A stretch of DNA of 64,000 nucleotides from Escherichia phage muut. Within the stretch, counting starts at the first letter, position 1; every line of letters begins with the position of its first letter. The translations under genes and the position numbers were made by a program. The stretch lies in sequence record NC_052657.1, one strand, 5' to 3'. Shown in pieces: positions 10,537-52,433 of this stretch. Under the pieces are notes generated by a model. That model saw nothing but the letters and a program-made list of their open reading frames with translations. It did not search any database and had not been told where the DNA came from.

Positions 10537-10767
10537 ATGACCGAGAAATTTATTGTTACTATGGAACTCACCTTTGATGAAGAAGATTTTGATCTTCACG
10601 TATCAACTAAAGCAGATAACATTCACACGACACAGAGTGTTGCAATCGCTATGTTCTTTAAGCAAGCAATTGCAAAACAAGCTGAAGTGTGTGCTGGTTT
10701 AGCTGTAGAGTACGCAGAAGTTGTCAAGGTTCTTGAAAGTGCTCGCAACAACGATTGGGATGAATAA
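10537..10767 (+). CDS. hypothetical protein (76 aa)
   Basis: ATG with AAGAGGAG RBS 21 nt inside ORF-track ORF. Confidence 0.45.
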   Translation: MTEKFIVTMELTFDEEDFDLHVSTKADNIHTTQSVAIAMFFKQAIAKQAEVCAGLAVEYAEVVKVLESARNNDWDE

Positions 10768-10970
10768 TGGCATACAATTACTATCTGGTATATTTTAACG
10801 AAACTAAGAAAAAAGACACAGGAACTAATGTTTATGCGGAATCGGAAGAACACGCAAAAGCTATTGGTTCAGTGCTTCTTTCTAGAATAGCAGGTGAAGA
10901 AATTCCTGTAGAGGCTATCTTTGCAGAAGTTGACCCTGGTATTCAAGAAGATGATATTACCACTACTTAA
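10767..10970 (+). CDS. hypothetical protein (67 aa)
   Basis: ATGA overlap with previous gene. Confidence 0.45.
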   Translation: MAYNYYLVYFNETKKKDTGTNVYAESEEHAKAIGSVLLSRIAGEEIPVEAIFAEVDPGIQEDDITTT

Positions 10971-10973
10971 CTG

Positions 10974-11020
10974 TTGACTTTAACATTGAGGTAGTGCATA
11001 CTTCCTGTAACAGAACAGGA
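10974..11020 (+). promoter_or_regulatory. sigma70-like promoter plus 5' stem-loop
   Basis: TTGACT-17-CATACT, then TCCTGT-AACAGAA-ACAGGA hairpin, then GGAGGG RBS. Confidence 0.45.
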
Positions 11021-11027
11021 GGGTATT

Positions 11028-11690
11028 ATGAAGTTTGTACTGTATCATCGACTTTCTAAGAAGAAACAACAAGGCAACCAGTATGGTATAGAATCACAGG
11101 AAGCAGATATCCAACGCTTCCTGGATTCACAAGAAAATTATACTATTGTAGGTAGCTTTGCAGAGTTTTATTCTGGTAAAGGCGATTGGAAGCAACGTAG
11201 AGAGCTTGTAAAAGCTGTTAATCTTTGCAAAGAAACAGGTGCTACACTTGTTGTTGCTAAGGTTGACCGTCTTGGACGTAACACAGCTTCTGTTGCAACC
11301 TTGTTAGAGATGATTAATGTACGGATAGCCACTATGCCCTCCGCTGAAAATATGATAATAAATATTTTAGCAGTTCTGGCAGAAGAAGAGGCTCGTGCAA
11401 TATCTGATCGTGTTAAGAAGAGCCTTAAGGTAGCAAAAGCGAAGGGAACGCTTCTTGGTGCAGCAAACCCTAAATACAAAAGAACAGATTATACGAAAAC
11501 GGAAGAAGCAAAACGCTCAAAAGAGTTTGCACTTTCTTTAAAAGATTCTTTAGTTGCATACAGAGCTTGTAAAACGCCATATATGACGATTGCAAAGCAT
11601 CTGAATGAATCAGGAAAGAGAACTATTCGTGGGAGTTTGTTCGATGCCAAAGCGGTACAACGTCTTTGTGCAAAATTGAATATTAAATAA
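11028..11690 (+). CDS. serine recombinase (resolvase/invertase family)
   Basis: 220 aa; YHRLSKKKQ (catalytic Ser), SGKG...R, VVAKVDRLGRN motifs. Confidence 0.7.
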   Translation: MKFVLYHRLSKKKQQGNQYGIESQEADIQRFLDSQENYTIVGSFAEFYSGKGDWKQRRELVKAVNLCKETGATLVVAKVDRLGRNTASVATLLEMINVRIATMPSAENMIINILAVLAEEEARAISDRVKKSLKVAKAKGTLLGAANPKYKRTDYTKTEEAKRSKEFALSLKDSLVAYRACKTPYMTIAKHLNESGKRTIRGSLFDAKAVQRLCAKLNIK

Positions 11691-17512: not shown

Positions 17513-18046
17513 ATGGGTTTTGATGACATGTTATTATATGAGGAGGCTTGTGTGAAAGAAGCTATGGCTTTACCAGTTTTATCTATTGATATTACAACAG
17601 TAGACACTTTTTCAGATTGTGAAACGTGTGGATCGTATTCGTCTATTGTACATGAAGTTAGTGGGGATTTAGGCACTTACGAAGATGGAGATTATGCAAG
17701 TTGTTTAGGTGATAATCGAGATGGTGAAGTGGCGAATGTTGCAAACTGGATTGCTTCTAAGTTAAAAGAAAGAAATCGTCCGTTCCCTAATCTTCTTACA
17801 CCAGAAGCTATGCTTAAAGCTGAACAAGAGATGTATGATTATGGTTATAAAGTAGATTATGACTATAATGATCCTAAATATAAAAAATTGAGTGACAAGT
17901 ATTGGGAACTAGCTAATGCTTATGATAAATACTACTCTACAGAAAACATTGTTAAATTGTTTTTAGATTTTGGAGTAGAAATTAATTGGGATTTCGAAGA
18001 GGAAGAGCGTTACGACGCATCTTCTTGGGAGGACGAGGGTGAATGA
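17513..18046 (+). CDS. hypothetical acidic protein (177 aa)
   Basis: ATG with GGAGGA RBS 15 nt inside ORF-track ORF. Confidence 0.5.
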   Translation: MGFDDMLLYEEACVKEAMALPVLSIDITTVDTFSDCETCGSYSSIVHEVSGDLGTYEDGDYASCLGDNRDGEVANVANWIASKLKERNRPFPNLLTPEAMLKAEQEMYDYGYKVDYDYNDPKYKKLSDKYWELANAYDKYYSTENIVKLFLDFGVEINWDFEEEERYDASSWEDEGE

Positions 18047-18783
18047 TAGAACGAAAACCCTTACCAGATAGAGATTACTTGTTATCAAGGTTTAGTGTGG
18101 AGAATGGTCGTCTTGTTTGGAAACCTAAACCTTCTACAACAAAAGAGAACAAAAGGTGGAATAGCAGATACGCAGGGAAGATTGCAGGGACTATTGATAA
18201 AGCTGGTTACTCTCATGTCAAAATAGATGGTATTGTATACTTGGAGCACAGAGTTTGTTTTAAAATGTATCATAATTACTGTCCAGATGTTATAGACCAT
18301 GATGACGGCAATAAACTTAATAATGCGGAAAGTAATTTATTGGATAGTAACTATTTATTAAATAATAACAATAGACACGTGGATGGGTTAGAAGGTATTT
18401 ATGAAAAGGATGGTGTTTTTCTTTGGGTTATAAACTACAACCAAGAAACTTTCTCTGTTTCAGGTTTCAAAACTAAAGAGGAAGCTATTGTAGCTAGAGC
18501 TTTAGCAAAACAAGAAATTTTGAAAGGATCTTATATCAAAAAAGAAAAGAAGCGTATAGATAACACTTCAGGATTAAGCTGTGTGTTTGTGGCAACAAGA
18601 GAGAGAACATTCTTTTTCAAGTTTGTGTTTGACAAGATCACGTATTGCAAATATGGTTTCAACGATCCAGAGAGATGTGCTATAGCTCTGGAGAAACTAA
18701 GATTGAAGGTGATGAAAGAAAAATATAAACCTGCAAATAAAAGCATTTGCGAAAAATATAAGGAGGAGATTTATGCCGCGTAG
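18043..18783 (+). CDS. HNH homing endonuclease with AP2-type DNA-binding domains
   Basis: GY..V.IDG..YLEHRV...IDHDDGNKLNN HNH_3 pattern; two AP2-like repeats. Confidence 0.55.
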   Translation: MIERKPLPDRDYLLSRFSVENGRLVWKPKPSTTKENKRWNSRYAGKIAGTIDKAGYSHVKIDGIVYLEHRVCFKMYHNYCPDVIDHDDGNKLNNAESNLLDSNYLLNNNNRHVDGLEGIYEKDGVFLWVINYNQETFSVSGFKTKEEAIVARALAKQEILKGSYIKKEKKRIDNTSGLSCVFVATRERTFFFKFVFDKITYCKYGFNDPERCAIALEKLRLKVMKEKYKPANKSICEKYKEEIYAA

Positions 18784-23884: not shown

Positions 23885-23945
23885 CGGTACAAACAGTTTT
23901 ACTTTTCGTAAAAAACATGCTACCCTAATCTTATATACCGAGCGA
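23885..23945 (+). promoter_or_regulatory. conserved element copy A (18-mer AAAAACATGCTACCCTAA plus GAGCGAnAGCGAG)
   Basis: Near-identical to element at 52327-52433; plus orientation inside a minus-strand gene block. Confidence 0.3.
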
Positions 23946-24046
23946 TAGCGAGGTAGAGAATATTCCATGTTATACATGGAAAGAGTATATGTAATGTTAC
24001 TAACTCTATAACTAACTATATACTCTTTATACCTTACTTACTACTC

Positions 24047-32021: not shown

Positions 32022-32369
32022 GATAATCTCCTCTCATCGTTAGTCATCTTTCATGGCAATCATCAATCACCAACATCATACGATCAATCTTAGGGAATTA
32101 CAATCGAATTATCATAGGGGATTCCTATCAATTATTCTATATATACCTATTATTTTTAACACACCCCTTTGTACATAATATAGACAAATAAATATCTATG
32201 CCACAAAAATTTTCTGGTATACCCGATTTATTTCGACACACCCCCTTTTCATAAGCGTAAAGTCAATAATATCAATAACTTGCCGCAAAATACTGCTCGC
32301 TTGCGAGAGGTGCTTAACGCGATTTTCAGCGCCCCGCGATTTTTCCCGACCGTCCCCCTCAAATATCAA

Positions 32370-32400
32370 TGAGAATAATTATCATTTGCATTATCATTCA
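32370..32400. repeat. Fur-box-like palindrome
   Basis: GAGAATAATTATCATTTGC, 14/19 to GATAATGATAATCATTATC. Confidence 0.35.
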
Positions 32401-32554
32401 ATGACTTATAAGACTTTTGATTATTTTCTGAGCAAGAAAGGTACTACTCACAACAAAACAGATAAATTCTAAGTAAATCAATGGCTTGGCAAGTCTAAAC
32501 ATCTATATACACCTTGCCAAATGAAATGATCTGGCGTGAAATAGTGCTACCCGT

Positions 32555-32580
32555 GGAAGATAGCTGATAATGATTATCAT
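32555..32580. repeat. Fur-box-like palindrome
   Basis: GATAATGATTATCATTTGC, 16/19 to Fur consensus. Confidence 0.45.
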
Positions 32581-33107
32581 TTGCATATTTTCTATACTAT
32601 AAAACGCACTAAAAATCAAGATAATTCTGATTTATTGCGCTTTTAAGAAAGTAGGCTCAACAAATAGGCTATAACTATGCTCAACAAATAACAATAATAG
32701 TATGAAAAATCATTTATTCAGATATAAATAATTTTGCGCAATAGTAGTAATATTTTTCTTGACAAGAAAGATTTCTTTGTGTTCACATAGCGCCCCCTGG
32801 AAGGTGGCGCATTATGATCATCAATGTCATTATTCACCATGTTTATTATTGCATAGCTTATTATTTAGCTTATATTATAGCCAATGTTCTAAACACTAGC
32901 TAATAATAACGCACCGCAACAATGTAAGGGATACAATATACCATGTATATTGTTGCGCTTGCAATTGTTGCAAGCTACATAAGCACAAATAATAACTATC
33001 GGTGATGGTTATTATGTGGGGTGTGTAGTTGCGTTATTATTAGCCGCCTATGTGTCCGGCATAGGCTGCTAATGATACGCTTGCGAATTATATTTCTTGT
33101 TATAGTT

Positions 33108-33175
33108 ATTGTATGAAATGATTACCACATGAAATGGTTACTGTATGCAATGATTACTGTATGAAATGATTAGTT
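33108..33175. repeat. four tandem ~16-bp direct repeats (iteron-like)
   Basis: GTATGAAATGATTAC / CATGAAATGGTTAC / GTATGCAATGATTAC / GTATGAAATGATTAG. Confidence 0.55.
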
Positions 33176-33189
33176 AGGTAATAAATAGG

Positions 33190-33470
33190 AAGGTAAAGGT
33201 TAGATCATAAATAGATAGGATATGAATTATTTAGTAATGTTACTAACGATTTAATAGTTACTTTGTGCAATAATTCGATAGATTATAGTTATAGTTTTAA
33301 AGGTTAGATAGATTATATTTAGCTTAGTAATGATTTATATTAGTTATTGTTGTTTAATATAAGGTTATCAATGAGATAGTAACAGTAAGTTATAAATAAA
33401 GGTTAGATAATTAGTTTTAATTTAGTTAGATAACTTATTATTTTATAGGTTAGATGGTCATAAGTTAAGA
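33190..33470. repeat. dispersed AAAGGTTAGAT repeats (4-5 copies)
   Basis: Copies near 33196, 33297, 33408, 33434, 33446 in AT-rich context. Confidence 0.45.
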
Positions 33471-33545
33471 ATGATTATCATTATTGCATTATGCAGCTTA
33501 TTGCATAAATAATCAGCTATAAATAAGAATGATTATCATTTAAGA
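33465..33545. repeat. two Fur-box-like palindromes
   Basis: AGAATGATTATCATTATTG and AAATAAGAATGATTATCAT; second is near-identical to 43383-43405. Confidence 0.45.
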
Positions 33546-33733
33546 GGAAAGACAAGAAAAAGGCTGTTTTTGCCAGATAGTTGCATGAAGAAATTAAAAA
33601 TAAGCGGTCTAAAACACGTTGTAAGCGCCTTATGATCTTCATGGTATGGTTGTTCATCTGCTCCTTGATTAGCTCGATACCGCGATCTATTCACTTTTTT
33701 CGGTGAACGTTTTTGATAGGTAAAAGCTATCAT
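33536..33733 (-). CDS. hypothetical basic protein (65 aa), doubtful
   Basis: ORF at edge of non-coding region, poor RBS. Confidence 0.25.
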   Translation of the reverse strand: MIAFTYQKRSPKKVNRSRYRANQGADEQPYHEDHKALTTCFRPLIFNFFMQLSGKNSLFLVFPLK

Positions 33734-33744
33734 CTTTATTTAGG

Positions 33745-33771
33745 TAAAAAGAAAGGGCGCAATAAGCGCCC
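33745..33771 (-). terminator. rho-independent terminator
   Basis: GGGCGC-TTATT-GCGCCC then TTTCTTTTT on minus strand. Confidence 0.55.
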
Positions 33772-33787
33772 TTGTTTGAAATGTTAT

Positions 33788-34171
33788 TTACTGATAAGCA
33801 GGATCGTTTGTTATATCAATCCAATGAGCTAAATTAATTTTATTTTTTGCTTTCATTTTCTCGATCAAACGTTCGGCTAATGTCTCGGAACGAATATAAA
33901 CATAATCGCTAAAATCTTGCCCCGTTTCTTCGTCGATCATTTCCCTATATTCAACCTTGCCGATAAACGCATGATTCAGCGCATAAGTTTTACCCGTGTA
34001 CCAGTTGTGTAAATGAATCTCGCATTTATAATCGTCGCTATAACCTTCGGTTGTTCTAACTTCAACCAAGTCACCTTTAAACACTGATAAGCACCACATA
34101 GGATCATGATCTACAGCGCCGTTAAAATCTTTACCGTTTACAGTCGCTGCCAGGTTGATGATATTGCTCAT
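33788..34171 (-). CDS. hypothetical protein (127 aa)
   Basis: AGGAatcacc RBS. Confidence 0.5.
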   Translation of the reverse strand: MSNIINLAATVNGKDFNGAVDHDPMWCLSVFKGDLVEVRTTEGYSDDYKCEIHLHNWYTGKTYALNHAFIGKVEYREMIDEETGQDFSDYVYIRSETLAERLIEKMKAKNKINLAHWIDITNDPAYQ

Positions 34172-34246
34172 GGTGATTCCTCGTTTACCGTTTAAAATTG
34201 TTTGCCCTACACGATAACTATAAATTAACAGAGGCTATAAAGCAAG

Positions 34247-34477
34247 TTATTTTTCATAGAATTTTTCTACTGTGATATTCTTCCCAGTGGGATTAGCTAC
34301 TTTCAAAATTTTATCATGTACTGGACGCCCAAAAGAATAAGATCCGTATACAGTAAACCAATAATCGCCGTCAGGCTGTACTATTACCGCCGCATATGGT
34401 ACGCCTTTTTCGTTATTGCTGACAGAATAGATCACATTGCCGTTCAGAGCCACAGCGCGTTTAATTTGTTCGATCAT
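34247..34477 (-). CDS. hypothetical protein (76 aa)
   Basis: ATG with AGGA RBS downstream of hairpin; ORF-track N-terminus translates the hairpin (GGKWFPA). Confidence 0.5.
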   Translation of the reverse strand: MIEQIKRAVALNGNVIYSVSNNEKGVPYAAVIVQPDGDYWFTVYGSYSFGRPVHDKILKVANPTGKNITVEKFYEK

Positions 34478-34496
34478 GATATGATTCCTATATTGA

Positions 34497-34555
34497 GCGG
34501 GAAACCACTTCCCGCCTACGTGATACATCTTAGTATAAGGGCGATCCGGTGTCAA
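34497..34555 (-). promoter_or_regulatory. promoter plus stem-loop cassette
   Basis: TTGACA-17-TAAGAT then GCGGGAAACCACTTCCCGC hairpin. Confidence 0.55.
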
Positions 34556-34904
34556 TAGGTGAGATTGTAAAGATTTGATAGTTTATTTCTTTAATGTTTT
34601 GTTGTTTGATAGGTGGAAGCTATCAATATATAATAAGATCGTCCGGTGATTATCTTCCCCTGCTCCCAGGTGCCGCCCGTTCCATAATAATAATCAAAAG
34701 CAGGATAAAAGGCAAGATAAAAAGCAAATTATTTCCTATGTGCTTTAAACGCTCTAAATAGTTTTATAACAGCTTTTTCATCCTGGCAAGGTGATTAGTC
34801 ATTGTTACCTTGTTTAAGCGGTTATAATCGGTTTTAGGCTGTTTTACGCCACCTTTTACGTTTATTCTTTACGTGTTACTTCCATCGTGAAAAAAGAATA
34901 CAAA

Positions 34905-34934
34905 AAAGGGCGCTTAGTGCGCCCCTTTCTTTTA
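34905..34934. terminator. rho-independent terminator (bidirectional)
   Basis: GGGCGC-TTAGT-GCGCCC flanked by A-run and T-run. Confidence 0.5.
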
Positions 34935-34941
34935 CCGTGTA

Positions 34942-35331
34942 TTAATATTCGTTATAATACATTGCTAACTTTTCATCAAAAGCCGATTGACGATCTGCAT
35001 ACTCCCAAAACATTTCCTGATCCTGTTGTTCGTCATCGTCCATCATATTAAATTGCGCAACCTCCTGGTAAGTGATCGCCATATTATAACGATAGGTGAT
35101 CTCTTCTGCGATGTTTTCCGGTAAAGATGATTCTACACTGTCTAACAGCATATTTAACATCATTTCAGCCGCTTTTTCATCATTATCAAAGCAGTAAGCA
35201 GACCATGCCGCATGATGTTTATTTTTCATCTTTGCAATCAAGCCGTTGACTAAAAAAGGCGCTACGTTGTTAACGATACCCTGTAAAGATTGAAATTTTT
35301 CAACGTTAGAAACAGAAACCAGGTTGCGCAT
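34942..35331 (-). CDS. hypothetical acidic protein (129 aa)
   Basis: ATG downstream of hairpin; ORF-track start lies in hairpin loop. Confidence 0.5.
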   Translation of the reverse strand: MRNLVSVSNVEKFQSLQGIVNNVAPFLVNGLIAKMKNKHHAAWSAYCFDNDEKAAEMMLNMLLDSVESSLPENIAEEITYRYNMAITYQEVAQFNMMDDDEQQDQEMFWEYADRQSAFDEKLAMYYNEY

Positions 35332-35354
35332 AGTATTTACCTTTTTGATTACCT

Positions 35355-35413
35355 GGCGGGAAACCATTTCCCGCCTACGTGGTAAATAGTACCATATTGG
35401 GGATCGGTGTCAA
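35355..35413 (-). promoter_or_regulatory. promoter plus stem-loop cassette
   Basis: TTGACA-16-TACTAT then GGCGGGAAATGGTTTCCCGCC. Confidence 0.55.
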
Positions 35414-35419
35414 TACTTT

Positions 35420-35806
35420 TTATTCAATATAAATCAAATTATCTTCACCAATGTAAGCATGCACCGATGGCATTAATTTAGCTGCATTTGTTAGGCGGTT
35501 GGCGGTGTTAGTAGTGTATATTTCAGGGCGATCCCAAAAGCCTACGCCGTGACCGTTACGGGTGAAATGTAAGTCATTCCCGATCTGGTTTGCTGTTGCG
35601 CCGTCGCTCATTGCCTCAGAGATAGCAGCATCATTGGCATCACAATAAGCCGCTACGTCATGAATGATCCGCTGATGGGCTTGATCTGAAAAATCATAAT
35701 CGTCTAAGTTATCAATAAAATTACCTTCATGATCCCTAGCTGATTCAGCAAAAATAAAGGCTTCTTTATAACCGTTGATGATTTCAATAATGATTTCTGT
35801 TTTCAT
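35420..35806 (-). CDS. hypothetical protein (128 aa)
   Basis: ATGA overlap with upstream gene. Confidence 0.5.
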   Translation of the reverse strand: MKTEIIIEIINGYKEAFIFAESARDHEGNFIDNLDDYDFSDQAHQRIIHDVAAYCDANDAAISEAMSDGATANQIGNDLHFTRNGHGVGFWDRPEIYTTNTANRLTNAAKLMPSVHAYIGEDNLIYIE

Positions 35807-36018
35807 GCTGTACGCTCGACAATAATAATGGTTTGCGGTATCTCGTTTTCTACTACTAACAAGGCTTTTTTCTGTGTGATAGATATTTTAACACGTTGTA
35901 AAGTAGCGGTAAAATCTTTCATTTCATTATGCGCGGATTTAGTGCAATGCCAGATCTCAGGCTTACCTATTTGCAAGCCGCGTAAAAATTCTGTTTTACC
36001 TGTCTTATTCGTGATCAT
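35803..36018 (-). CDS. hypothetical protein (71 aa)
   Basis: ATG with AAGGTG RBS. Confidence 0.45.
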   Translation of the reverse strand: MITNKTGKTEFLRGLQIGKPEIWHCTKSAHNEMKDFTATLQRVKISITQKKALLVVENEIPQTIIIVERTA

Positions 36019-36028
36019 TTGATTCACC

Positions 36029-36133
36029 TTATCCAATACCGTGGGAAGATAGGATCATGTTAGCCATAGTTGCAACCAATCCAACCGACAACGCCAGGCC
36101 AACTATTACAACCGTGAAAATTTTCTCTAACAT
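36029..36133 (-). CDS. small hydrophobic peptide (34 aa)
   Basis: GAGGG RBS; own promoter/hairpin upstream; single TM-like segment. Confidence 0.4.
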   Translation of the reverse strand: MLEKIFTVVIVGLALSVGLVATMANMILSSHGIG

Positions 36134-36151
36134 GATTCTACCCTCATTAAT

Positions 36152-36213
36152 GGGCGTTGCCTTATTGCCCCGCCCTATGTCGTACACTTTACCAGATAAC
36201 CGCGTATTGTCAA
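36152..36213 (-). promoter_or_regulatory. promoter plus stem-loop cassette
   Basis: TTGACA-16-TAAAGT then GGGCG...CGCCC hairpin. Confidence 0.5.
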
Positions 36214-36214
36214 A

Positions 36215-36409
36215 CTATTTTTTATAAGGGATCAGTAAACTTCTTGCTACCGCTTCACGTAAACCTTCCCTTTTTATCAGGTCTATTGTTGCAGGGTGGC
36301 AAGTAAAAGCCTTTGACCATTTTTGATCACCTGGTTTACGGGCGAAAATGTAAACTTCTCCGTCGATTTCATCCCAACGAGTATTGCTTGTTAGTTTTTT
36401 AAGCGCCAT
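36215..36409 (-). CDS. hypothetical protein (64 aa)
   Basis: ATG downstream of hairpin. Confidence 0.5.
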   Translation of the reverse strand: MALKKLTSNTRWDEIDGEVYIFARKPGDQKWSKAFTCHPATIDLIKREGLREAVARSLLIPYKK

Positions 36410-36432
36410 GCTGATTTCTCTTTTAGTTGTGA

Positions 36433-36488
36433 GCGGCACTATTGCCGCCCTACGAAATACATTCTACCCGATTTATAATTGTTGTCAA
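36433..36488 (-). promoter_or_regulatory. promoter plus stem-loop cassette
   Basis: TTGACA-16-TAGAAT then GCGGCA-ATAG-TGCCGC hairpin. Confidence 0.55.
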
Positions 36489-36489
36489 A

Positions 36490-36759
36490 CTATTTTTTCA
36501 AGCTCGACCAGTCAAAACACGGGGCGATCTCGTTAAAACTTGTACCCTGTAAAGCACATAATTTTTTAGCAATAGCCGCCGTAACCTGGCGTTGTACGCG
36601 CGGATCTGCTACTGATTGGAGAAAATAGGCGGTTTTATATGTGATCATGCTTTCGCCTGTTTCCTTGTTAACGTGGTGCACGGTTTTAGCCTTATCATCT
36701 TTTACCAGGGTGTAACCGGATTCGATGGCCTTGATTGCAACGTCCAAAGATATTTTCAT
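36490..36759 (-). CDS. hypothetical protein (89 aa)
   Basis: AAGAGG RBS. Confidence 0.5.
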   Translation of the reverse strand: MKISLDVAIKAIESGYTLVKDDKAKTVHHVNKETGESMITYKTAYFLQSVADPRVQRQVTAAIAKKLCALQGTSFNEIAPCFDWSSLKK

Positions 36760-36778
36760 GATTTACCTCTTTATTGAC

Positions 36779-36799
36779 GGCGGGGAATACTCCCCCGCC
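36779..36799 (-). promoter_or_regulatory. intercistronic stem-loop (no promoter)
   Basis: GGCGGGGGAGTATTCCCCGCC between upstream stop and RBS. Confidence 0.45.
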
Positions 36800-36806
36800 T
36801 TATTAA

Positions 36807-36977
36807 TTACTCTTCATCGTCGCCGTTATAGTATTCAATGCCGTTTTCATCGGTTACGGTGATGTTAACGCCACCAATAGCAACACGATCACGGGCAAAC
36901 GTCATGGCTTCATTTAAATCTTCAGACCAAAAAATATTGTGACCTTTGCGCGATACATAAAACATAGTTGGGATCAT
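36807..36977 (-). CDS. hypothetical protein (56 aa)
   Basis: ATG downstream of hairpin. Confidence 0.45.
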   Translation of the reverse strand: MIPTMFYVSRKGHNIFWSEDLNEAMTFARDRVAIGGVNITVTDENGIEYYNGDDEE

Positions 36978-37000
36978 GATTTGTTTCTCTTCTGTTATGA

Positions 37001-37057
37001 GCGGCACTATTGCCGCCCTATGTGATAAACTTTACTACGTTGTTTGCCTAGTGTCAA
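37001..37057 (-). promoter_or_regulatory. promoter plus stem-loop cassette
   Basis: TTGACA-17-TAAAGT then GCGGCA-ATAG-TGCCGC. Confidence 0.55.
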
Positions 37058-37058
37058 A

Positions 37059-37343
37059 TTATTTTTTAATGTTTTGCCCTACAAAATTAATCACTTCCTT
37101 AAGCTGTTTCTCAGTCATGATCGTGCCTGGCAATTCTTCTTTGATTTCTTCCGGTAGATAGATATTACCGCGCCAGGTTAATAAACAACCGTTTTGATCT
37201 TCGCAGATAGAATAAGAGAAGATCCACTCATTATCATTCTCAAGCTCCCAAAAGCACAAAAAATCTTCTTTCCCCAGGTTTTCAACGGTTAAACATAAGC
37301 CGCGACGTGCTGCATAGTTGGAAAGTGCTTTTGTGATCTTCAT
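37059..37343 (-). CDS. hypothetical protein (94 aa)
   Basis: AAGAGA RBS. Confidence 0.5.
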   Translation of the reverse strand: MKITKALSNYAARRGLCLTVENLGKEDFLCFWELENDNEWIFSYSICEDQNGCLLTWRGNIYLPEEIKEELPGTIMTEKQLKEVINFVGQNIKK

Positions 37344-37363
37344 AGCTTATCTCTTCTTTTAAG

Positions 37364-37425
37364 GCGGGGAAACCATTTCCCCGCTCTATGAGATACAATA
37401 TACTACCCGTTCGGTGTGCTGTCAA
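37364..37425 (-). promoter_or_regulatory. promoter plus stem-loop cassette
   Basis: TTGACA-17-TATATT then GCGGGGAAATGGTTTCCCCGC. Confidence 0.55.
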
Positions 37426-37749
37426 TCAATAATCTTCAATATTTTCTACATTGACAAAAGCATGTTTATTTTCTAAGTTTTCGCCGTACCATTGCCCCAT
37501 GTTGATTTCTGCGGTGCGCAACCAGGACATGCCGCGCTCTATCTTTTTACTTGCAATCTCGATCCGGCTTTTGCATAGTGCTTTCGCTTGCAATGTAAAA
37601 ACACTATTGCCCTGTAATGCTTCCAGGTCATCATGTGCAAGGCGATACTCTTTAAAGCCTGATTCTATCATTTCAATCGCATCAAGGAAACGAGCGCGAT
37701 GATAGAAAAAATCAGAGTTATCCAAATAAACACCGATCACAGATTTCAT
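37426..37749 (-). CDS. hypothetical protein (107 aa)
   Basis: ATG with AAGGG RBS 60 nt inside ORF-track ORF. Confidence 0.5.
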   Translation of the reverse strand: MKSVIGVYLDNSDFFYHRARFLDAIEMIESGFKEYRLAHDDLEALQGNSVFTLQAKALCKSRIEIASKKIERGMSWLRTAEINMGQWYGENLENKHAFVNVENIEDY

Positions 37750-37759
37750 AATTTTACCC

Positions 37760-37820
37760 TTTTGTTTGCGGCCTTTGCCGTTTTCAAGATATAGTTTAAA
37801 GCATAACAAAAAATTGTCAA
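37760..37820 (-). promoter_or_regulatory. promoter with short stem-loop
   Basis: TTGACA-16-TAAACT; CGGC-AAAG-GCCG hairpin. Confidence 0.4.
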
Positions 37821-37849
37821 GCCTTTAAAGCGTACAACTATAAAACCTA

Positions 37850-37969
37850 TTAAAACACAATGCATAACAACATGGCTATAGTAGCAATACAACATAAAGC
37901 CATGCTTGTTTTCCTTCCTTCCTCGTATGCTGGATTTATTACGCTATATTGTACGGGAATAATTTTCAT
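37850..37969 (-). CDS. small hydrophobic peptide (39 aa)
   Basis: AAGGA RBS; Cys-rich hydrophobic C-terminus. Confidence 0.3.
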   Translation of the reverse strand: MKIIPVQYSVINPAYEEGRKTSMALCCIATIAMLLCIVF

Positions 37970-38078
37970 GCTGTTTCCTTAATGTCTTAAAACGTGGTTT
38001 ACAATAGAAACAAGTATACAGAAGAAAAAAGATCCTGACAATAAGATCCCGAAAAATAAATGTAAATAGGGCATGGTT

Positions 38079-38381
38079 TTACTCCTTAAAAAAATCATTG
38101 ACAATTAAACTGATAACGCCCAGCACCAGATCACCAGGTAGCGCCGCGCTTTCGTTGTTGCTTGTTTGCACTTCCTCACTAGTACCAGCATGATAGATTG
38201 CATGGTAAGCAATAGTACAATAACCTTTCGTTATTTCTTTAAGATTAATGATTAGCACGTTATTTGTTTCATCTTGAAACAATTTAGCGGTGATAGTATT
38301 GTTTTCTTTTACACTATCGACTTTTATTGATGGATCATTTACACCAGAAAAAAGAAAAAACGTTTTAGCTATGCCGTTCAT
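38079..38381 (-). CDS. hypothetical protein (100 aa)
   Basis: GGAG RBS. Confidence 0.5.
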   Translation of the reverse strand: MNGIAKTFFLFSGVNDPSIKVDSVKENNTITAKLFQDETNNVLIINLKEITKGYCTIAYHAIYHAGTSEEVQTSNNESAALPGDLVLGVISLIVNDFFKE

Positions 38382-38428
38382 GTAGTTCTCCTTTGTTGTG
38401 TGTATCTTATAACGTGCTTTCTATGTTG

Positions 38429-38830
38429 TCAATCTTTTATCTCGGTGCATTTTGCTAGGGTATACGTTGCAAGTGCTGACACTAGTTTTTCATTGCTACG
38501 ATCTGCGGCTGTACTGTGTACTTTTTGAATACTTTTTAACCACGGCGTAAAATTTTGAGTAGTCAGCACACTGGTAATAATTTCACATGGCACATCTTCA
38601 TTTAAGCCGTTAACAATAGACTTATCTATTTTTGCCGTTAGTTGTGTAACAGCACCATAAGCGATCATGTGTGAATCCTCCATGATTTCATCGGGGATCG
38701 CATTATTAATAAGCATGACGTTTTCCATTGCATCAACGGCGCTTAATTCTGCTACTGTGGAGGATATCGCCGCGCTAGATGTTCCAACCATGCCAAAATA
38801 GATTAAACCAGCGATCAATAAGTTTTTCAT
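38429..38830 (-). CDS. secreted/periplasmic protein with signal peptide (133 aa)
   Basis: ATG with GAGG RBS; N-terminal MKNLLIAGLIYFGMVGTSSA signal-like segment. Confidence 0.5.
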   Translation of the reverse strand: MKNLLIAGLIYFGMVGTSSAAISSTVAELSAVDAMENVMLINNAIPDEIMEDSHMIAYGAVTQLTAKIDKSIVNGLNEDVPCEIITSVLTTQNFTPWLKSIQKVHSTAADRSNEKLVSALATYTLAKCTEIKD

Positions 38831-38838
38831 TTCTTGCC

Positions 38839-39021
38839 TCATATATGTTTTATTGAGATTATATTGTCACTATATACAACGTTTTTCAACGTGTCAATAA
38901 AAATCTTATTGCCTTCAATCCCCAGGATCACGCCGCTAGTTATGAAGCCATATTGATCACGATATCGGGCGCATAACCTTTGCCCCTGGGCTAGTGCCTT
39001 GCTTATTTCGTCTAATTTCAT
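38839..39021 (-). CDS. hypothetical protein (60 aa)
   Basis: GGAG RBS. Confidence 0.45.
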   Translation of the reverse strand: MKLDEISKALAQGQRLCARYRDQYGFITSGVILGIEGNKIFIDTLKNVVYSDNIISIKHI

Positions 39022-39115
39022 TTTTAAAGCTCCTGTAAAGCTGTCTAACGTGGTTTATAGGCTTATCCTGGCGTTACCATTGCCTATGGGTAACAAGCCT
39101 CTATATAAGCTAAAA

Positions 39116-39139
39116 GGGCGCTTATTGCGCCCTTTTTTG
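39116..39139. terminator. rho-independent terminator (bidirectional)
   Basis: GGGCG-CTTATTG-CGCCC with T-run. Confidence 0.5.
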
Positions 39140-39277
39140 TTATTCGTTCCAGTATCTTTTTGTGCTGCGATCTCTTTTTGTTTTGTTCCGCTTATCGCCT
39201 TTTTTGGTGATCTCTTCGTTCCAATTTTTACGCGCCTTGCTGCGGTTGAATTTTTCGATCTGCTGTGATGCGTTCAT
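39140..39277 (-). CDS. small basic protein (45 aa)
   Basis: AAGGA RBS; Lys/Arg rich; plus-strand ORFs here look spurious. Confidence 0.4.
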   Translation of the reverse strand: MNASQQIEKFNRSKARKNWNEEITKKGDKRNKTKRDRSTKRYWNE

Positions 39278-39292
39278 GTTTTTTCCTTTTAA

Positions 39293-39652
39293 TCACGCCA
39301 CGTTATGCTGTTTTGCCAGGGTTACGATCATGCTTGCAATATATAACCAATAATTTTCCCGCTCACGGGTAACGGTTGTTTCTCTGCTTGTTTCTTTTAT
39401 GTACTTCCATTCAATTAACAAGTGATCGATCTCGTTATAATCAAAAGCAATATTGATTTCTGACGGTAAACCTTGTAACCAGGAGGCTATCGCCTTGATC
39501 ATGTTATGATTGTAACGTTTTTGATTATCGGGATACCAGTATTCAGAATTAAAACGGCGCATCAGTTCGGTGATTTTTTCTTTTTCGGTTGTAGTACCAT
39601 CAAAAGAAATAGCCGACAAAATGTAAGTTTTAATTGCTTTTGCTGATTTCAT
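39293..39652 (-). CDS. hypothetical protein (119 aa)
   Basis: AAAGAG RBS after hairpin. Confidence 0.5.
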   Translation of the reverse strand: MKSAKAIKTYILSAISFDGTTTEKEKITELMRRFNSEYWYPDNQKRYNHNMIKAIASWLQGLPSEINIAFDYNEIDHLLIEWKYIKETSRETTVTRERENYWLYIASMIVTLAKQHNVA

Positions 39653-39673
39653 AATCTTATCTCTTTATTGATG

Positions 39674-39732
39674 GCGGGAAACCATTTCCCGCCGTTGTTG
39701 TTACTTTACTTATAAATGATGCTACTGTCAAG
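39674..39732 (-). promoter_or_regulatory. promoter plus stem-loop cassette
   Basis: TTGACA-18-TAAAGT then GGCGGGAAATGGTTTCCCGCC. Confidence 0.55.
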
Positions 39733-39738
39733 CGAATA

Positions 39739-39909
39739 TTATTTATTTTTTAACGTTAATGTTCCCAGCTTATCAGCGTGACGCAGACCAGGAAAGATCC
39801 ATTTTCCTGATTCATCTTTCACCGGGGCTTTAAGCGTAGCGCCCAGGTTGGCGGCGTTAACTTTACGTGCAACGTTGCGAGCGGCTTCACGGGTGGCGAA
39901 AGTGATCAT
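39739..39909 (-). CDS. small protein (56 aa)
   Basis: GAGGA RBS after hairpin; below ORF-track cut-off. Confidence 0.45.
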   Translation of the reverse strand: MITFATREAARNVARKVNAANLGATLKAPVKDESGKWIFPGLRHADKLGTLTLKNK

Positions 39910-39932
39910 GATGTTTCCTCTTCTCTTTGTTA

Positions 39933-39993
39933 GGCGGTGGGCTATTCCACCGCCTTAATGAATATAGTTTACTGATTTTAGTTATCTTGTCAA
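39933..39993 (-). promoter_or_regulatory. promoter plus stem-loop cassette
   Basis: TTGACA-16-TAAACT then GGCGGTGG-AATAGC-CCACCGCC. Confidence 0.55.
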
Positions 39994-40001
39994 GATTATT
40001 T

Positions 40002-40229
40002 TTAGTTTAATCCATCCAGGCACAACAAGCGATCAACGTTTAGATCGGTTAGGCTAATCGTTGGCACCTGGTAGGATTCGATGTACTCAACGCTCGACCA
40101 TTGCCCAAAGTTAGCGACCGCCCAGCTATTCAAGGAGGAGTGAAGATCATCCCCTTTCTTCTCTGTGATAACTGCTACTACCTGAGAGATTCCAACCGTA
40201 CCGGATACGCGAACAATAACGATAGCCAT
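40002..40229 (-). CDS. hypothetical protein (75 aa)
   Basis: AAAGG RBS after hairpin. Confidence 0.5.
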   Translation of the reverse strand: MAIVIVRVSGTVGISQVVAVITEKKGDDLHSSLNSWAVANFGQWSSVEYIESYQVPTISLTDLNVDRLLCLDGLN

Positions 40230-40251
40230 AATGATAACCTTTCTTTGATTT

Positions 40252-40312
40252 GGCGGGAAACCATTTCCCCGCCTTATGTGATAAACTATACCAGATTAAA
40301 AAACGTTGTCAA
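40252..40312 (-). promoter_or_regulatory. promoter plus stem-loop cassette
   Basis: TTGACA-16-TATAGT then GGCGGGGAAATGGTTTCCCGCC. Confidence 0.55.
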
Positions 40313-40321
40313 CTGCTTTTA

Positions 40322-40561
40322 TTACATTCCTACCATAGCGGCGCGGATACTGGTTTTACTGAATTTATAGCCATCTGGCGTAGTATTTTCGCCCATTTCG
40401 TTAAGTAGTGACATCATTTCACGCGCGGCGTTATCTTTATTGTTGTTCACGGCTATAAATTCTTTTGCCATATTATAAAAACCTGGATCGTTATTAATCC
40501 AAAGGCTTACATTCCAATGAGTTTTATTTTTGTGACCGTTGTACATTTTAGATTTAGCCAT
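40322..40561 (-). CDS. hypothetical protein (79 aa)
   Basis: AAGAG RBS after hairpin. Confidence 0.5.
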   Translation of the reverse strand: MAKSKMYNGHKNKTHWNVSLWINNDPGFYNMAKEFIAVNNNKDNAAREMMSLLNEMGENTTPDGYKFSKTSIRAAMVGM

Positions 40562-40585
40562 GATGTTAATCTCTTTTTCAGTGAG

Positions 40586-40644
40586 GCGGGAACTATTCCC
40601 GCTCTCGATGTAAACTATTATACAGTACTAAGATACTTTGTCAA
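40586..40644 (-). promoter_or_regulatory. promoter plus stem-loop cassette
   Basis: TTGACA-16-TATAAT then GCGGGAATAGTTCCCGC. Confidence 0.6.
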
Positions 40645-40647
40645 TAC

Positions 40648-40923
40648 TTAAGTATTGTAAATGTCGTGAATAGTGATAAAGTTTTTACGACCGTAAACAT
40701 GTAAATCAGTATCAATGTAGTGCTTATCAAGTACATCCTCGACGCTTAACGCGGTGTCGTGAATATCTTCGTAGAATTGAGGATCTACAATCTTACTTAA
40801 ATCATCCGGCGTTAACTTATCATTAAGCCATTGAACCGCCTGGATATCTGCTTCACGTTTCCAGTCTTCCAGGTTAGTAGTCAGTACTTGTTCGATTTCG
40901 TTAGCTGTCAGTAGAATCCGCAT
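40648..40923 (-). CDS. hypothetical protein (91 aa)
   Basis: GGAA RBS. Confidence 0.5.
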   Translation of the reverse strand: MRILLTANEIEQVLTTNLEDWKREADIQAVQWLNDKLTPDDLSKIVDPQFYEDIHDTALSVEDVLDKHYIDTDLHVYGRKNFITIHDIYNT

Positions 40924-40956
40924 TTTAATGTTTCCTTATCAGTGGTTGATGTAAGT

Positions 40957-40984
40957 ATTATACTCGTTTACTTTCTATTGTCAA
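40957..40984 (-). promoter_or_regulatory. sigma70-like promoter
   Basis: TTGACA-16-TATAAT. Confidence 0.55.
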
Positions 40985-40994
40985 ACTATTTTAT

Positions 40995-41100
40995 CAGGGG
41001 GAGTTTTTCGTGTGCCTTACTCCTGGGCTACTTAACGGGGTGTTACTTCGTTCCCCCGTCCTGATATGAAACATTTTACGCTTTTTATTCGTGCTGTCAA
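40995..41100 (-). promoter_or_regulatory. second promoter followed by double stem-loop
   Basis: TTGACA-16-TAAAAT, then ACGGGG...CCCCGT and GGAGT...ACTCC hairpins. Confidence 0.45.
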
Positions 41101-41106
41101 TGCTTT

Positions 41107-41472
41107 TTATAAATCTTTTTTACGTTTAACATCGCTTGCATGGCTGTATACAGCGATCCCATTGTCACGGCAAAAACGGGAAAGATACGCGCCGCGTGAA
41201 AACTCTTTACCTTCCAGGTTGATAACCTTGCTAAACTCTTCTAGGGCAACGGTATCAAAATGATCCCCGTATCCATATTGGAACGGCACGTTTACCACTT
41301 CGATCAGTTTACCGCCGATCTCAACGTCAACCATCAAAGAGAAATAAGTATTACCATAAGACTTTTGAAACCAGCGACGGGCGCTAATATGCACCGCTTC
41401 AATGCTGGATAGTTCAATTTTAGCCGTGTTAGCCAGGGTAGCATAAGCGGAAACATTAATATTTTTAGCCAT
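41107..41472 (-). CDS. hypothetical protein (121 aa)
   Basis: AGGA RBS. Confidence 0.5.
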   Translation of the reverse strand: MAKNINVSAYATLANTAKIELSSIEAVHISARRWFQKSYGNTYFSLMVDVEIGGKLIEVVNVPFQYGYGDHFDTVALEEFSKVINLEGKEFSRGAYLSRFCRDNGIAVYSHASDVKRKKDL

Positions 41473-41509
41473 GATTTTATTCCTTAGTAACGCTTCAATT
41501 TATATAAGC

Positions 41510-41537
41510 ATTATAGCTTACTGATTTCAGTTGTCAA
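41510..41537 (-). promoter_or_regulatory. sigma70-like promoter
   Basis: TTGACA-16-TATAAT. Confidence 0.55.
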
Positions 41538-41558
41538 GTGATTTTTTATTTCACCTTT

Positions 41559-41615
41559 GAGGGGGTTGCCCCGCTCTATGTGGTACATATTACGGGGCTT
41601 GTTTGCATATGTCAA
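41559..41615 (-). promoter_or_regulatory. promoter plus stem-loop cassette (tandem with 41510-41537)
   Basis: TTGACA-17-TAATAT then GAGCGGGGCAACCCCCTC. Confidence 0.45.
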
Positions 41616-41618
41616 GCC

Positions 41619-42173
41619 TTACACAATGCAATTTTCATAATTTTTTAAGGCTTGTATTTTTTCCTCTTCTGTCGGCCTATATGGCTGGATCTCTTCCTCT
41701 TCCAGGGTGGGCATGATTTCTTCCTCTTCCTCCTGGTCGTCCTGGTCTTCCTCTTGCGCTATGGTAACAAGTTTATTGATCTTCTCCTGGGCTTTAATCA
41801 ATTTTGCATCTAGCACCATTTTAGCGGTGTTGTATACAGTCCATGCCATGCGCTTTTCTTCGTATGCCTTATCTAGTGCGGCTAATTTAGCGGGATACTC
41901 TTCTAACACCTTAAAAGCCGGATCAATGCTATATAAGGGATTATTTTTAGCATCATCGCTTGGATCTGCGGCGCTTGCAATGTCAGCGTTACCATTTGCC
42001 AGCCAACCAGGGCGAACGGATCGCGCCTTTGTGTTGCCGTTGCTCTTTGCCGCTCGATTTCCTATCTGCTCCCCGCTATACCCTACCATGTGATCGATCA
42101 TTTCATCTGGTATTATGCGCGGATCATTAGCGTCATGCTTTACCCATGACTGGATCACATATTCACGCCCCAT
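41619..42173 (-). CDS. hypothetical protein with acidic C-terminus (184 aa)
   Basis: ORF overlapping upstream gene end. Confidence 0.5.
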   Translation of the reverse strand: MGREYVIQSWVKHDANDPRIIPDEMIDHMVGYSGEQIGNRAAKSNGNTKARSVRPGWLANGNADIASAADPSDDAKNNPLYSIDPAFKVLEEYPAKLAALDKAYEEKRMAWTVYNTAKMVLDAKLIKAQEKINKLVTIAQEEDQDDQEEEEEIMPTLEEEEIQPYRPTEEEKIQALKNYENCIV

Positions 42174-42766: not shown

Positions 42767-43033
42767 ATGACAAATACCCCTTTACATCTCATGCACTCAT
42801 TGGGCTGGCAAGGCGGCACGGTGCACCAGGTAGCAAGCGCAACGGGCTTAAAGGTTGAAACCGTTCTCAACCTGGGCGATCATAAGGTGGAAGAAATAGA
42901 TCATTTTGATACGTTCGCAAATGGTTATCTATGGGCTTGCAGTGGCGGCGGGGAAAGCAAGATCCCGCCAGGGGCGCGGGGCGACATGTATTTTTGGTTA
43001 GGTGTCCTATCCTGGCAAGAAAACAAAAAATAA
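42767..43033 (+). CDS. hypothetical protein (88 aa)
   Basis: AAGGG RBS; lone plus-strand gene between minus blocks. Confidence 0.5.
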   Translation: MTNTPLHLMHSLGWQGGTVHQVASATGLKVETVLNLGDHKVEEIDHFDTFANGYLWACSGGGESKIPPGARGDMYFWLGVLSWQENKK

Positions 43034-43035
43034 TC

Positions 43036-43064
43036 TTGACAAGCCCAGGGATCGGGCTTATACT
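43036..43064 (+). promoter_or_regulatory. sigma70-like promoter
   Basis: TTGACA-17-TATACT. Confidence 0.5.
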
Positions 43065-43070
43065 GTTTTA

Positions 43071-43170
43071 CATACAGAAGAGGAAGCGCCACCCCCACGG
43101 CGTAAAGGCGGGGCTAACATACCAGGGCACTACTGGTTGGAAGGTTGATCGCCGGTAGCTCGTCTAAAAT
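43071..43170 (+). ncRNA. candidate small structured RNA
   Basis: GC-rich hairpin-rich ~100 nt after the promoter, with no ORF and no RBS. Confidence 0.25.
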
Positions 43171-43314
43171 AAATTTGTAAAGAAATGTAAAGATAAAAAT
43201 AATCGCTTGCTTTTGTTGTTGGTTATGCTATTCTTATTGTATGGCGAGGGGATACGGGAGCGCGAGACAAACACCACCCCTGCGCGTTATTCTCTAAATG
43301 AGAAAATTCTTATT

Positions 43315-43405
43315 TGGTAATGATTCTCATTCTCTTACTGAGAATGATTATCACTTACATAATTAAATGATAATGATTCTCATTTACAAATGAGAATGAT
43401 TATCA
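43315..43405. repeat. cluster of four Fur-box-like palindromes
   Basis: TAATGATTCTCATT, GAGAATGATTATCAC, GATAATGATTCTCAT, GAGAATGATTATCAT. Confidence 0.45.
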
Positions 43406-43430
43406 TCCGCACACCCATAAAAACACGAAA

Positions 43431-43631
43431 TTGAACTTTTCATTTTTGATTTTTCTACGGAAAAAGGCAAAAAAACTTTAAATAAACTGGGGAATTTTTA
43501 AAAAATTGAAGTTTTCATTTTCAAAATCTGGACAGAAATACATACAAAAACTTTAAATAATTTTGACCAAACTTGAACTTTTCATTTTCAAAATTTGTAG
43601 CCAAAAATCTGTAAAAACTTTAAATAATTTT
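43431..43631. repeat. three tandem ~62-67 bp direct repeats
   Basis: Each unit: TTGAA(C/G)TTTTCATTTT(C/T)(A/G)A(A/T)(A/T)T ... AAAAACTTTAAATAA. Confidence 0.55.
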
Positions 43632-43845
43632 ATCCTTTTTATAAAAATGATTTTACTGTTCTGTTATAAATAGTAGTTAAGAGATAATGTGTCTTTTAAA
43701 AGCCAGATAGCATAGTCCAACAAACAAATTAAATAATTTATTAACAGAGTACAGAATAATATTTACTCTGGATATATTATTCAGAGGGTGGATTTCCGTA
43801 CATGAAACCCACACCCCTTTTATAAAAATAAAAATTTTCAAAATA

Positions 43846-52326: not shown

Positions 52327-52433
52327 TTGACTTTTTCAGAAAAACATGCTACCCTAAACCTGAAAGGTGACGAGCGAAGCGAGTTAGTATTCTCTATAGA
52401 TATTGTTCCTGTCACTCATGGAGGGGCAGGAAC
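52327..52433 (+). promoter_or_regulatory. conserved element copy B: promoter-like box plus stem-loop
   Basis: TTGACT-17-TACCCT inside the shared 18-mer AAAAACATGCTACCCTAA, GAGCGAAGCGAG box, GTTCCTG...CAGGAAC hairpin. Confidence 0.4.

Follow-up and report, generated by a model that had tools for sequence, protein, structure and literature searches.

A miniature serine recombinase is conserved across a subfamily of lytic myoviruses and has a predicted gated ribosome-binding site in Justus-like lineages

We analyzed a stretch of 64,000 nucleotides from Escherichia phage muut (NC_052657.1; one strand, 5' to 3'; hereafter the window), which carries the gene for a serine recombinase of 220 amino acids (aa). 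The window comes from a phi92-like Justusliebigvirus of the Stephanstirmvirinae, a lytic myovirus with a genome of about 147 kb; the lytic-type genome assumed by an earlier reading of these letters without database searches (the sequence-only reading) is thus correct. The recombinase gene stands behind a predicted promoter, and a hairpin covers its ribosome-binding site. The features of this unit are listed below.

10974..11002, + strand: sigma70-type promoter, TTGACT (10974-10979), 17-nt spacer and CATACT (10997-11002), from a consensus scan
~11008-11010, + strand: predicted transcription start, inferred from the promoter
11001..11022, + strand: ribosome-binding-site hairpin, with the 5' arm CUUCCUGU at 11001-11008, the loop at 11009-11014 and the 3' arm ACAGGAGG at 11015-11022
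11028..11690, + strand: serine recombinase gene, ATG start, 220 aa plus stop, equivalent to phi92 gp053 (100% identity)
11037..11450, + strand: catalytic domain and helix E, residues 4-141 (PF00239), with Tyr6, Arg8, Ser10 (11055-11057), Gln24, Asp80-Arg81-Leu82-Gly83-Arg84 (11265-11279), Glu121 and Arg128
11499..11675, + strand: C-terminal four-helix DNA-binding domain, residues ~158-216, probably of the PF07508 'Recombinase' type

The family assignment made by the sequence-only reading, a 220-aa protein of the resolvase/invertase type, is borne out by a match of residues 4-141 to the Pfam family PF00239 Resolvase (E=8.4e-22; 78.3 bits against a cut-off of 23.3) and by matches to PHROG 125 'DNA invertase' (1e-31) and PHROG 95 'integrase' (1e-25). 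The two motifs it named are also present, the catalytic serine as Ser10 within YHRLSK (codon 11055-11057) and DRLGRN at residues 80-85 (11265-11282). Both these matches and the structural model described below place the protein within the serine recombinase superfamily. Annotation of the gene predates this work: its phi92 counterpart gp053 has carried the label 'putative recombinase, resolvase family protein / DNA invertase' since 2012. The enzyme is of a known kind, of which it is a new, uncharacterised member. The 3 kb surrounding the gene are 95-99.5% identical to 54 deposited genomes.

Conservation of the catalytic domain was assessed in an alignment of 36 family members with 31-100% identity, in which Y6, R8, S10, Q24, D80, R81, R84, E121 and R128 were invariant or at least 90% conserved. 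Across eight Justus-like lineages, whole-gene dN ranged from 0.04 to 0.31 with dS saturated, giving a dN/dS of approximately 0.03-0.14; by domain, the ratio was 0.03-0.09 for the catalytic part compared to 0.10-0.27 for the C-terminal part. In Klebsiella phage 05F01, the orthologous position (L015:1108-1779) is occupied by a chimera, in which a foreign catalytic domain is joined to the C-terminal domain of this recombinase family; the foreign domain is different, of the resolvase type and intact, with the motifs YKRVSTDQQ ... SRLSRN. This domain swap argues that catalysis and this particular DNA-binding specificity are both required. A damaged copy was found in phage Schickermooser (L014:~1095-1746), where many deletions of 1-10 nt fall in the 5' half only, making it either a pseudogene or a sequencing artefact. 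The recombinase gene is present as one copy; the substitution ratios indicate strong purifying selection on it, and the encoded enzyme appears catalytically competent.

The AlphaFold2 model of the protein (mean pLDDT of 88) comprises a canonical catalytic domain, a long helix E (residues 108-138) and a C-terminal domain of four helices (158-170, 172-180, 185-194 and 207-216). Its fold agrees with those of Sin, gamma-delta resolvase, Bxb1 and TP901-1; the top Foldseek match was Bxb1 integrase (9iu2_A) over 257 columns, the Sin catalytic domain matched with a TM score of 0.7, and sequence matches in the PDB to the Tn3-type resolvase group reached an E value of ~1e-5. The C-terminal domain was identified through the family, with PF07508 'Recombinase' matched by 24 of the 36 members (E<=0.1, best 3e-7) and the window protein itself giving no match. 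The helix-turn-helix family HTH_7 (PF02796) was not matched by the window protein at E<=1, nor was it among the 25 most frequent of the 26 families matched by the 36 homologues (E<=0.1). The best NCBIfam matches were CcrB, Mpi and YneB, all far under their cut-offs. Across phages of different hosts, the rate of evolution of the C-terminal domain is about three times that of the catalytic domain. By family matches and model geometry, then, the DNA-binding domain appears to be of the type found in large serine integrases and not the helix-turn-helix of Hin and Gin. The description that fits the recombinase best is that of a miniature relative of large serine recombinases, belonging to an uncharacterised subfamily common in large lytic phages.

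Upstream of the gene, the promoter TTGACT-17-CATACT reported by the sequence-only reading is exact. A single match of this kind is not above chance, since 27 such sites were found between 8000 and 15500 compared to 24.1 +/- 5.5 in shuffled sequence, yet the promoter is conserved: an alignment of eight lineages whose proteins are 71-100% identical showed no change in TTGAC, in the 17-bp spacing or at A2 and T6 of the -10 hexamer. A promoter of the form TTGACA-17-nAnnnT also precedes the orthologues of phAPEC8, KP13-16, 05F01, Vibrio phage VPMCC14 and Shewanella phage 1/40, and the recombinase promoter is conserved in 13 lineages overall.

The stem-loop noted upstream of the gene is likewise real and bigger than had been described, its 3' arm covering the Shine-Dalgarno sequence AGGAGG (11017-11022). 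With a minimum free energy of -11.5 kcal/mol, it ranked 4th among the 76 gene starts in the window and was the strongest to pair a ribosome-binding site. Because MAFFT left the stems out of register, conservation of the hairpin was judged from per-sequence folds and the background of 76 gene starts. Hairpins pairing the ribosome-binding site were predicted in eight of nine Justus-like lineages, seven convincingly and phi1_175008 weakly; equivalents with varied stem extensions (e.g., CUCCUCA/UGAGGAG or CUCCUCUU/AAGAGGAG) were found in the lineages P0011, P0019, P0023, P0025, P0027 and 05F01. The hairpin is absent in phAPEC8 (Phapecoctavirus), KP13-16, VPMCC14 and Shewanella 1/40. In every case with a hairpin, the 5' arm fills the gap between the -10 hexamer and the expected transcription start. 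Since the predicted start is downstream of this arm, transcription from the recombinase promoter itself would yield messages that are free of the arm and translated, and read-through transcripts would be translationally silent. Such gating would restrict a potentially harmful enzyme to a low dose or to a particular time.

The gene is widespread among related phages. By tblastn, it was found in 160 phage records, of which approximately 131 are Stephanstirmvirinae; as many records match the 25 kb next to it, which makes the gene essentially universal among Stephanstirmvirinae. Compared to the window protein, identity falls with distance as follows.

Justusliebigvirus: 99-100%
Klebsiella phages: 78%
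Phapecoctavirus: 57%
Large lytic-type Vibrio and Shewanella phages: 35-49%

The exact protein was found in 829 blocks of public assemblies, and all 10 assembly contexts sampled were collinear, the sole difference being an extra open reading frame (ORF) for a 246-aa HNH endonuclease in one of them. Full-length homologues with ~35% identity reside on rep/parA plasmids of 6-7 kb. One metagenomic scaffold bearing the gene (L030, ERZ28586390 scaffold_9; 232,351 bp), read over 10 kb on either side of the gene, spans about 1.6 genome lengths and is probably a concatemer-like assembly artefact. Four records designated 'UNVERIFIED Campylobacter phage' (MG065639.1, MG065645.1, MG065656.1 and MG065689.1) are ordinary Justusliebigvirus, ~98% identical to the window, and Campylobacter as their stated host is probably wrong.

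We then searched for DNA on which the recombinase might act. The sequence-only reading had found no inverted-repeat crossover sites nearby, and our inverted-repeat searches confirmed this for the window as a whole, which contains terminator palindromes and one 23-nt pair (39986-40008 and 43021-43043). The pair was rejected as a crossover site because it consists of two outward-facing TTGACAAG promoters and the intervening segment is never inverted elsewhere. Self-comparison and an 8-mer dyad scan of the whole related genome A150 (146 kb) detected terminators, hairpins in 5' untranslated regions (5'-UTRs), promoter repeats and an old paralogue pair only. Among ~54 Justusliebigvirus records, no inverted orientation was found in six megablast scans of ~143 of 146 kb against all deposited phages, all records being collinear on one strand, with the tail-fibre module covered to 100% and showing no orientation polymorphism; the scans were made at E<=1e-50, so that inversions shorter than ~120 bp outside the window could escape them, and the extra megablast matches corresponded to record ends. 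No inverted pieces were seen in the gaps of the alignment between the window and A150, and no local rearrangements were seen around the gene or the terminal-repeat junction in metagenomic and isolate assemblies. Non-coding blocks conserved between Justusliebigvirus and Klebsiella phage phi1_175008 comprised promoters, terminators, the terminal-repeat region and an element at 43.0-43.85 kb, and were rejected as sites since none holds a recombination-site-like dyad.

As for integrated copies, blastn of the gene region against 5,426 complete E. coli genomes gave no match, and no close relative of the protein was found in 185,579 species-representative bacterial genomes (GTDB). Contigs that cross the genome ends at the terminal-repeat junction carry phage genes on both sides. 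Altogether, the lack of inverted repeats, the collinear genomes and the lack of integrated copies disfavour both integration and the inversion of any sizeable segment, and, on sequence grounds, the product name 'DNA invertase' is not supported.

The gene resides in an early/middle block, with PhoH-like, HslV-like and methyltransferase genes on one side and phosphatase and DprA-like genes on the other; within the closer set of genes, the neighbours apart from the DprA-like protein are of unknown function. In Shewanella phage 1/40, too, the DprA-like gene is only a few kb away from the recombinase, which could be mere synteny. The gene has changed place between genera: in KP13-16 it stands beyond the phosphatase gene, and in Phapecoctavirus it lies in the adjacent early block in reversed orientation. 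Two further ORFs of the window are as follows.

10767..10970, + strand: 67-aa ORF (PHROG 15892) of unknown function, directly upstream of the recombinase and co-inherited with it
18,043-18,783: HNH homing-endonuclease ORF, 246 aa, with the motif IDHDDGNKLNN, inside a 1.2-kb insertion

The stop codon of the 67-aa ORF lies 4 nt before the -35 hexamer of the recombinase promoter, and homologues of this ORF immediately precede the recombinase in Justusliebigvirus, phi1_175008, 05F01 and KP13-16, the pair being shifted relative to the phosphatase gene in KP13-16 and still together. The HNH insertion is present in a few Justusliebigvirus genomes only; most records cover 95% of positions 1-25,000 in two pieces.

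What reaction this enzyme might carry out was considered in light of the genome ends. Direct terminal repeats of 343 bp are annotated in phi92 and UAB_1, so every injected molecule has two direct copies of any site internal to the repeat; in the window the repeat is found once, at ~32,315-32,700. The plasmid-borne homologues most plausibly resolve multimers, by analogy with lone serine recombinases on small plasmids, which are usually multimer resolvases. The terminal repeats and the plasmid homologues together make us lean to a resolvase-like role, and we tentatively propose, as one possibility, that the recombinase performs a resolvase-like reaction on replicative phage DNA early in infection rather than an inversion. 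The reaction would recombine directly repeated copies of one specific phage site, and its outcome may be cyclisation or monomerisation of the terminally repeated genome. A precedent for a site-specific recombinase in lytic development is Cre/lox of phage P1, which cyclises the terminally redundant genome and resolves dimers. A broader form of this proposal, in which the lytic subfamily and the related marine myoviruses depend on a translationally gated miniature serine recombinase for a step of genome metabolism, be it cyclisation or monomerisation at a site within or close to the 343-bp repeat or the programmed rearrangement of the host's DNA, strikes us as rather doubtful.

Of the three roles raised by the sequence-only reading, a resolvase for replication intermediates is possible and our preferred guess, and several observations weigh against it. 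No res- or lox-like candidate site was found in the whole-genome 8-mer dyad scan. The intergenic region upstream of the gene is 57 bp and holds the promoter, the hairpin and the Shine-Dalgarno sequence, which makes it too short for a classical res site, and the region downstream is 9 bp. Palindromes in the terminal repeat were rejected as the site because they resemble Fur boxes and recur elsewhere, so that nothing ties them specifically to the recombinase. Other phages with terminal repeats, T7 among them, do without a site-specific recombinase, and resolution of concatemers would oppose packaging. The gating logic rests on a predicted transcription start; the deletions in Schickermooser, if real, would render the gene dispensable in the laboratory; and our literature search found no functional study of the gene.

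Inversion of a phage segment, either the tail-fibre genes or a promoter, between inverted crossover sites is what the PHROG 125 name and the gp053 label imply and what the sequence-only reading had offered for a switchable segment; it has precedents in the phage invertases Gin and Cin, and the protein bears weak full-length similarity to the Mpi master-invertase model. We consider it improbable, as only terminator hairpins and divergent promoters form inverted pairs in the window and the whole genome, ~54 independent records keep one orientation over the ~143 of 146 kb scanned, with the tail-fibre module fully covered, the alignment gaps hold no inverted pieces, and the protein scores 33.5 bits against the Mpi cut-off of 272 and has a domain other than HTH_7; for large segments, the invertase role is largely refuted. 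Rare integration into a bacterial chromosome, by lysogeny or pseudolysogeny, would suit the PHROG 95 match, the C-terminal domain and the closest structural match, the last two being of the kind seen in large serine integrases. It is hardly credible for a protein of 220 aa, compared to 450-600 aa, that is devoid of zinc-ribbon and coiled-coil domains, that has neither a match in the E. coli genomes nor a close relative among the species representatives, and whose metagenomic contigs run through the terminal-repeat junction into phage genes on both sides. Nor does it seem at all probable that the protein is catalytically idle, acting as a repressor or architectural factor derived from a recombinase. 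Resolvases do autoregulate their own promoters, and inverted repeats overlie the -10 region in phi1_175008, VPMCC14 and Shewanella 1/40; these repeats differ in spacing (5, 10 and 23 nt), and in the two marine phages the T-runs that follow make them look like upstream terminators. Ser10, Arg8, Asp80, Arg81, Arg84, Glu121 and Arg128 are conserved throughout, and even the catalytic domain swapped into 05F01 is intact.

Two other explanations are unlikely in our view. One is that the target lies in host DNA, with the recombinase rearranging, excising or breaking a host or prophage locus for takeover or counter-defence. A host-type promoter fits early expression, the phage genome yielded no target, and the DNA-binding domain is the faster-evolving part across phages of different hosts; host serine invertases such as PinQ and PinR are now reported to be linked to phage defence. 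No precedent is known for a lytic phage recombinase acting on the host, and this explanation would require a conserved or co-evolving host site for phages of Escherichia, Klebsiella, Vibrio and Shewanella; no PADLOC model of defence or anti-defence systems was matched. The other is that promoter and gene, possibly with the 67-aa ORF, constitute a selfish or accessory cassette, moron-like or formerly mobile and with no role in the lytic cycle. The mobile cassette suggested by the sequence-only reading finds weak support in the autonomous transcription unit, the varying position and orientation among Justusliebigvirus, KP13-16 and Phapecoctavirus, the co-travelling 67-aa ORF, the disrupted Schickermooser copy and the exchanged catalytic domain of 05F01. 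Against it stand the occurrence of one copy in essentially all genomes of the subfamily as well as in related phages, and the strong purifying selection on the catalytic residues. Direct or inverted repeats do not flank the gene, a second copy is missing, and among the 54 Justusliebigvirus genomes it shows no presence/absence polymorphism of the kind seen for the real mobile element of the window, the HNH endonuclease gene. Compared to these alternatives, the resolvase-like reaction on phage DNA is the reading we prefer, and a share of the probability is assigned to no reading.

Several other elements of the window were recorded. The physical genome end lies inside the window, within the non-coding stretch 32,022-33,787, and both boundaries of the terminal repeat are at a direct motif, (A)GGTGCT|YAAC, which is conserved in three genera and represents a candidate terminase cut site; the repeat itself is only moderately conserved between genera. 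Seven to eight palindromes near the E. coli Fur-box consensus (e.g., GATAATGATTATCATTTGC) cluster in two non-coding regions, the terminal repeat being one, and are conserved in Phapecoctavirus and one Klebsiella phage. They may serve iron/Fur control of early promoters or the binding of a phage protein. These palindromes and a strong promoter are located as follows.

32,355-32,395; 32,550-32,590; 33,467-33,545; 43,316-43,412: Fur-like palindromes
~43,033-43,061, + strand: strong promoter TTGACA-17-TATACT, in the ~43,020-43,850 element

After the 43-kb promoter, ~270 nt of GC-rich sequence are almost invariant in three genera, whose proteins are only 57-78% identical, and the element continues with Fur-like boxes and then three AT-rich tandem repeats of ~70 bp (43,427-43,631). 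Rfam gave no match to the element, and on neither strand is its folding energy in excess (z ~+1). Possible roles are those of a replication origin or a regulatory region. In the early small-gene region on the minus strand (~34,100-42,000), modules made up of a TTGACA-type promoter, a -10 hexamer and a 5'-UTR hairpin recur 5-9 times in direct order; one form of the hairpin is the perfect palindrome GGCGGGAAACCATTTCCCGCC, and variants of it bear compensatory changes. Lastly, a promoter-like element, AAAAACATGCTACCCTAA ... GAGCGA-NN-GCGAG-TAG, occurs in two copies (~23,895-23,955 and ~52,330-52,395). The copy at ~23,895, on the + strand amid minus-strand genes, has a counterpart in Klebsiella phage phi1_175008 with 87% conservation and could function as a middle promoter or mark where a small RNA starts.

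When phages are screened for therapy, genes for a recombinase, invertase or integrase are often taken to indicate a temperate lifestyle, and Justusliebigvirus and Phapecoctavirus are popular therapy candidates; one paper on phages of these genera states that no recombinase is encoded. For annotation and safety assessment alike, it helps to know that this core gene of a lytic lineage was not encountered in integrated form and that its invertase label is probably wrong. That a virulent phage lineage universally keeps a recombinase with predicted gating, catalytically intact by its sequence, with no visible substrate poses a moderately interesting question. If the broader form of our proposal is true, a role of site-specific recombination in the genome metabolism of a replicating virulent phage would be one not previously described. 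The family may also supply compact enzymes of 220 aa with an integrase-type DNA-binding domain for genome engineering.

Compared to known systems, the protein has its catalytic domain, and apparently the initial portion of the PF07508 domain, in common with large serine recombinases such as Bxb1, phiC31, TP901-1 and CcrB, the last being the best NCBIfam match (positions 10-225 of 542; 36 bits against a cut-off of 900). The large serine integrases differ in that the phage protein ends at residue 220 after the four-helix domain and has no zinc ribbon, coiled-coil or attP/attB system; they leave integrated copies flanked by attL and attR, none of which was present here in the bacterial genomes searched. 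With Tn3, gamma-delta, Sin and beta resolvases, it has the catalytic core and helix E in common; HTH_7, a three-subsite res next to the gene and a transposase or plasmid context are all missing, and its neighbours are early and nucleotide-metabolism genes of the phage and ORFs of unknown function, with no transposon or plasmid-stability module. The invertases Hin, Gin, Cin and Pin are likewise phage-encoded small serine recombinases with the same catalytic chemistry, and differ in their DNA-binding domain and in their hix/gix-like repeats, invertible segment and adjoining tail-fibre genes, none of which is seen here. P1 Cre/lox is a functional analogy only, since Cre is a tyrosine recombinase of an unrelated family, P1 is temperate and no lox-like site was found in this phage.

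Among proteins of similar size, YneB-type resolvase-like proteins (NF049883) score 29.8 bits against a cut-off of 175, which excludes membership. Mpi of Bacteroides fragilis (NF009949) aligns end to end (positions 5-197 of 203), also well below the score for a member, and acts on invertible promoter regions, none of which was seen in the phage. As a stand-alone gene without an adjacent crossover site, it is nevertheless alike in arrangement, and by this likeness the phage recombinase may act in trans on distant sites. The closest parallel for the gating is found in phage T4, where read-through transcripts of the lysozyme gene e, I-TevI and gene 49 are blocked by a hairpin over the ribosome-binding site and the promoter is so placed that its own transcripts miss the 5' arm of the hairpin. 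T4 uses a late promoter for this purpose, whereas the promoter here is of the sigma70 type with a predicted start; the same geometry recurs upstream of the recombinase in seven to eight lineages.

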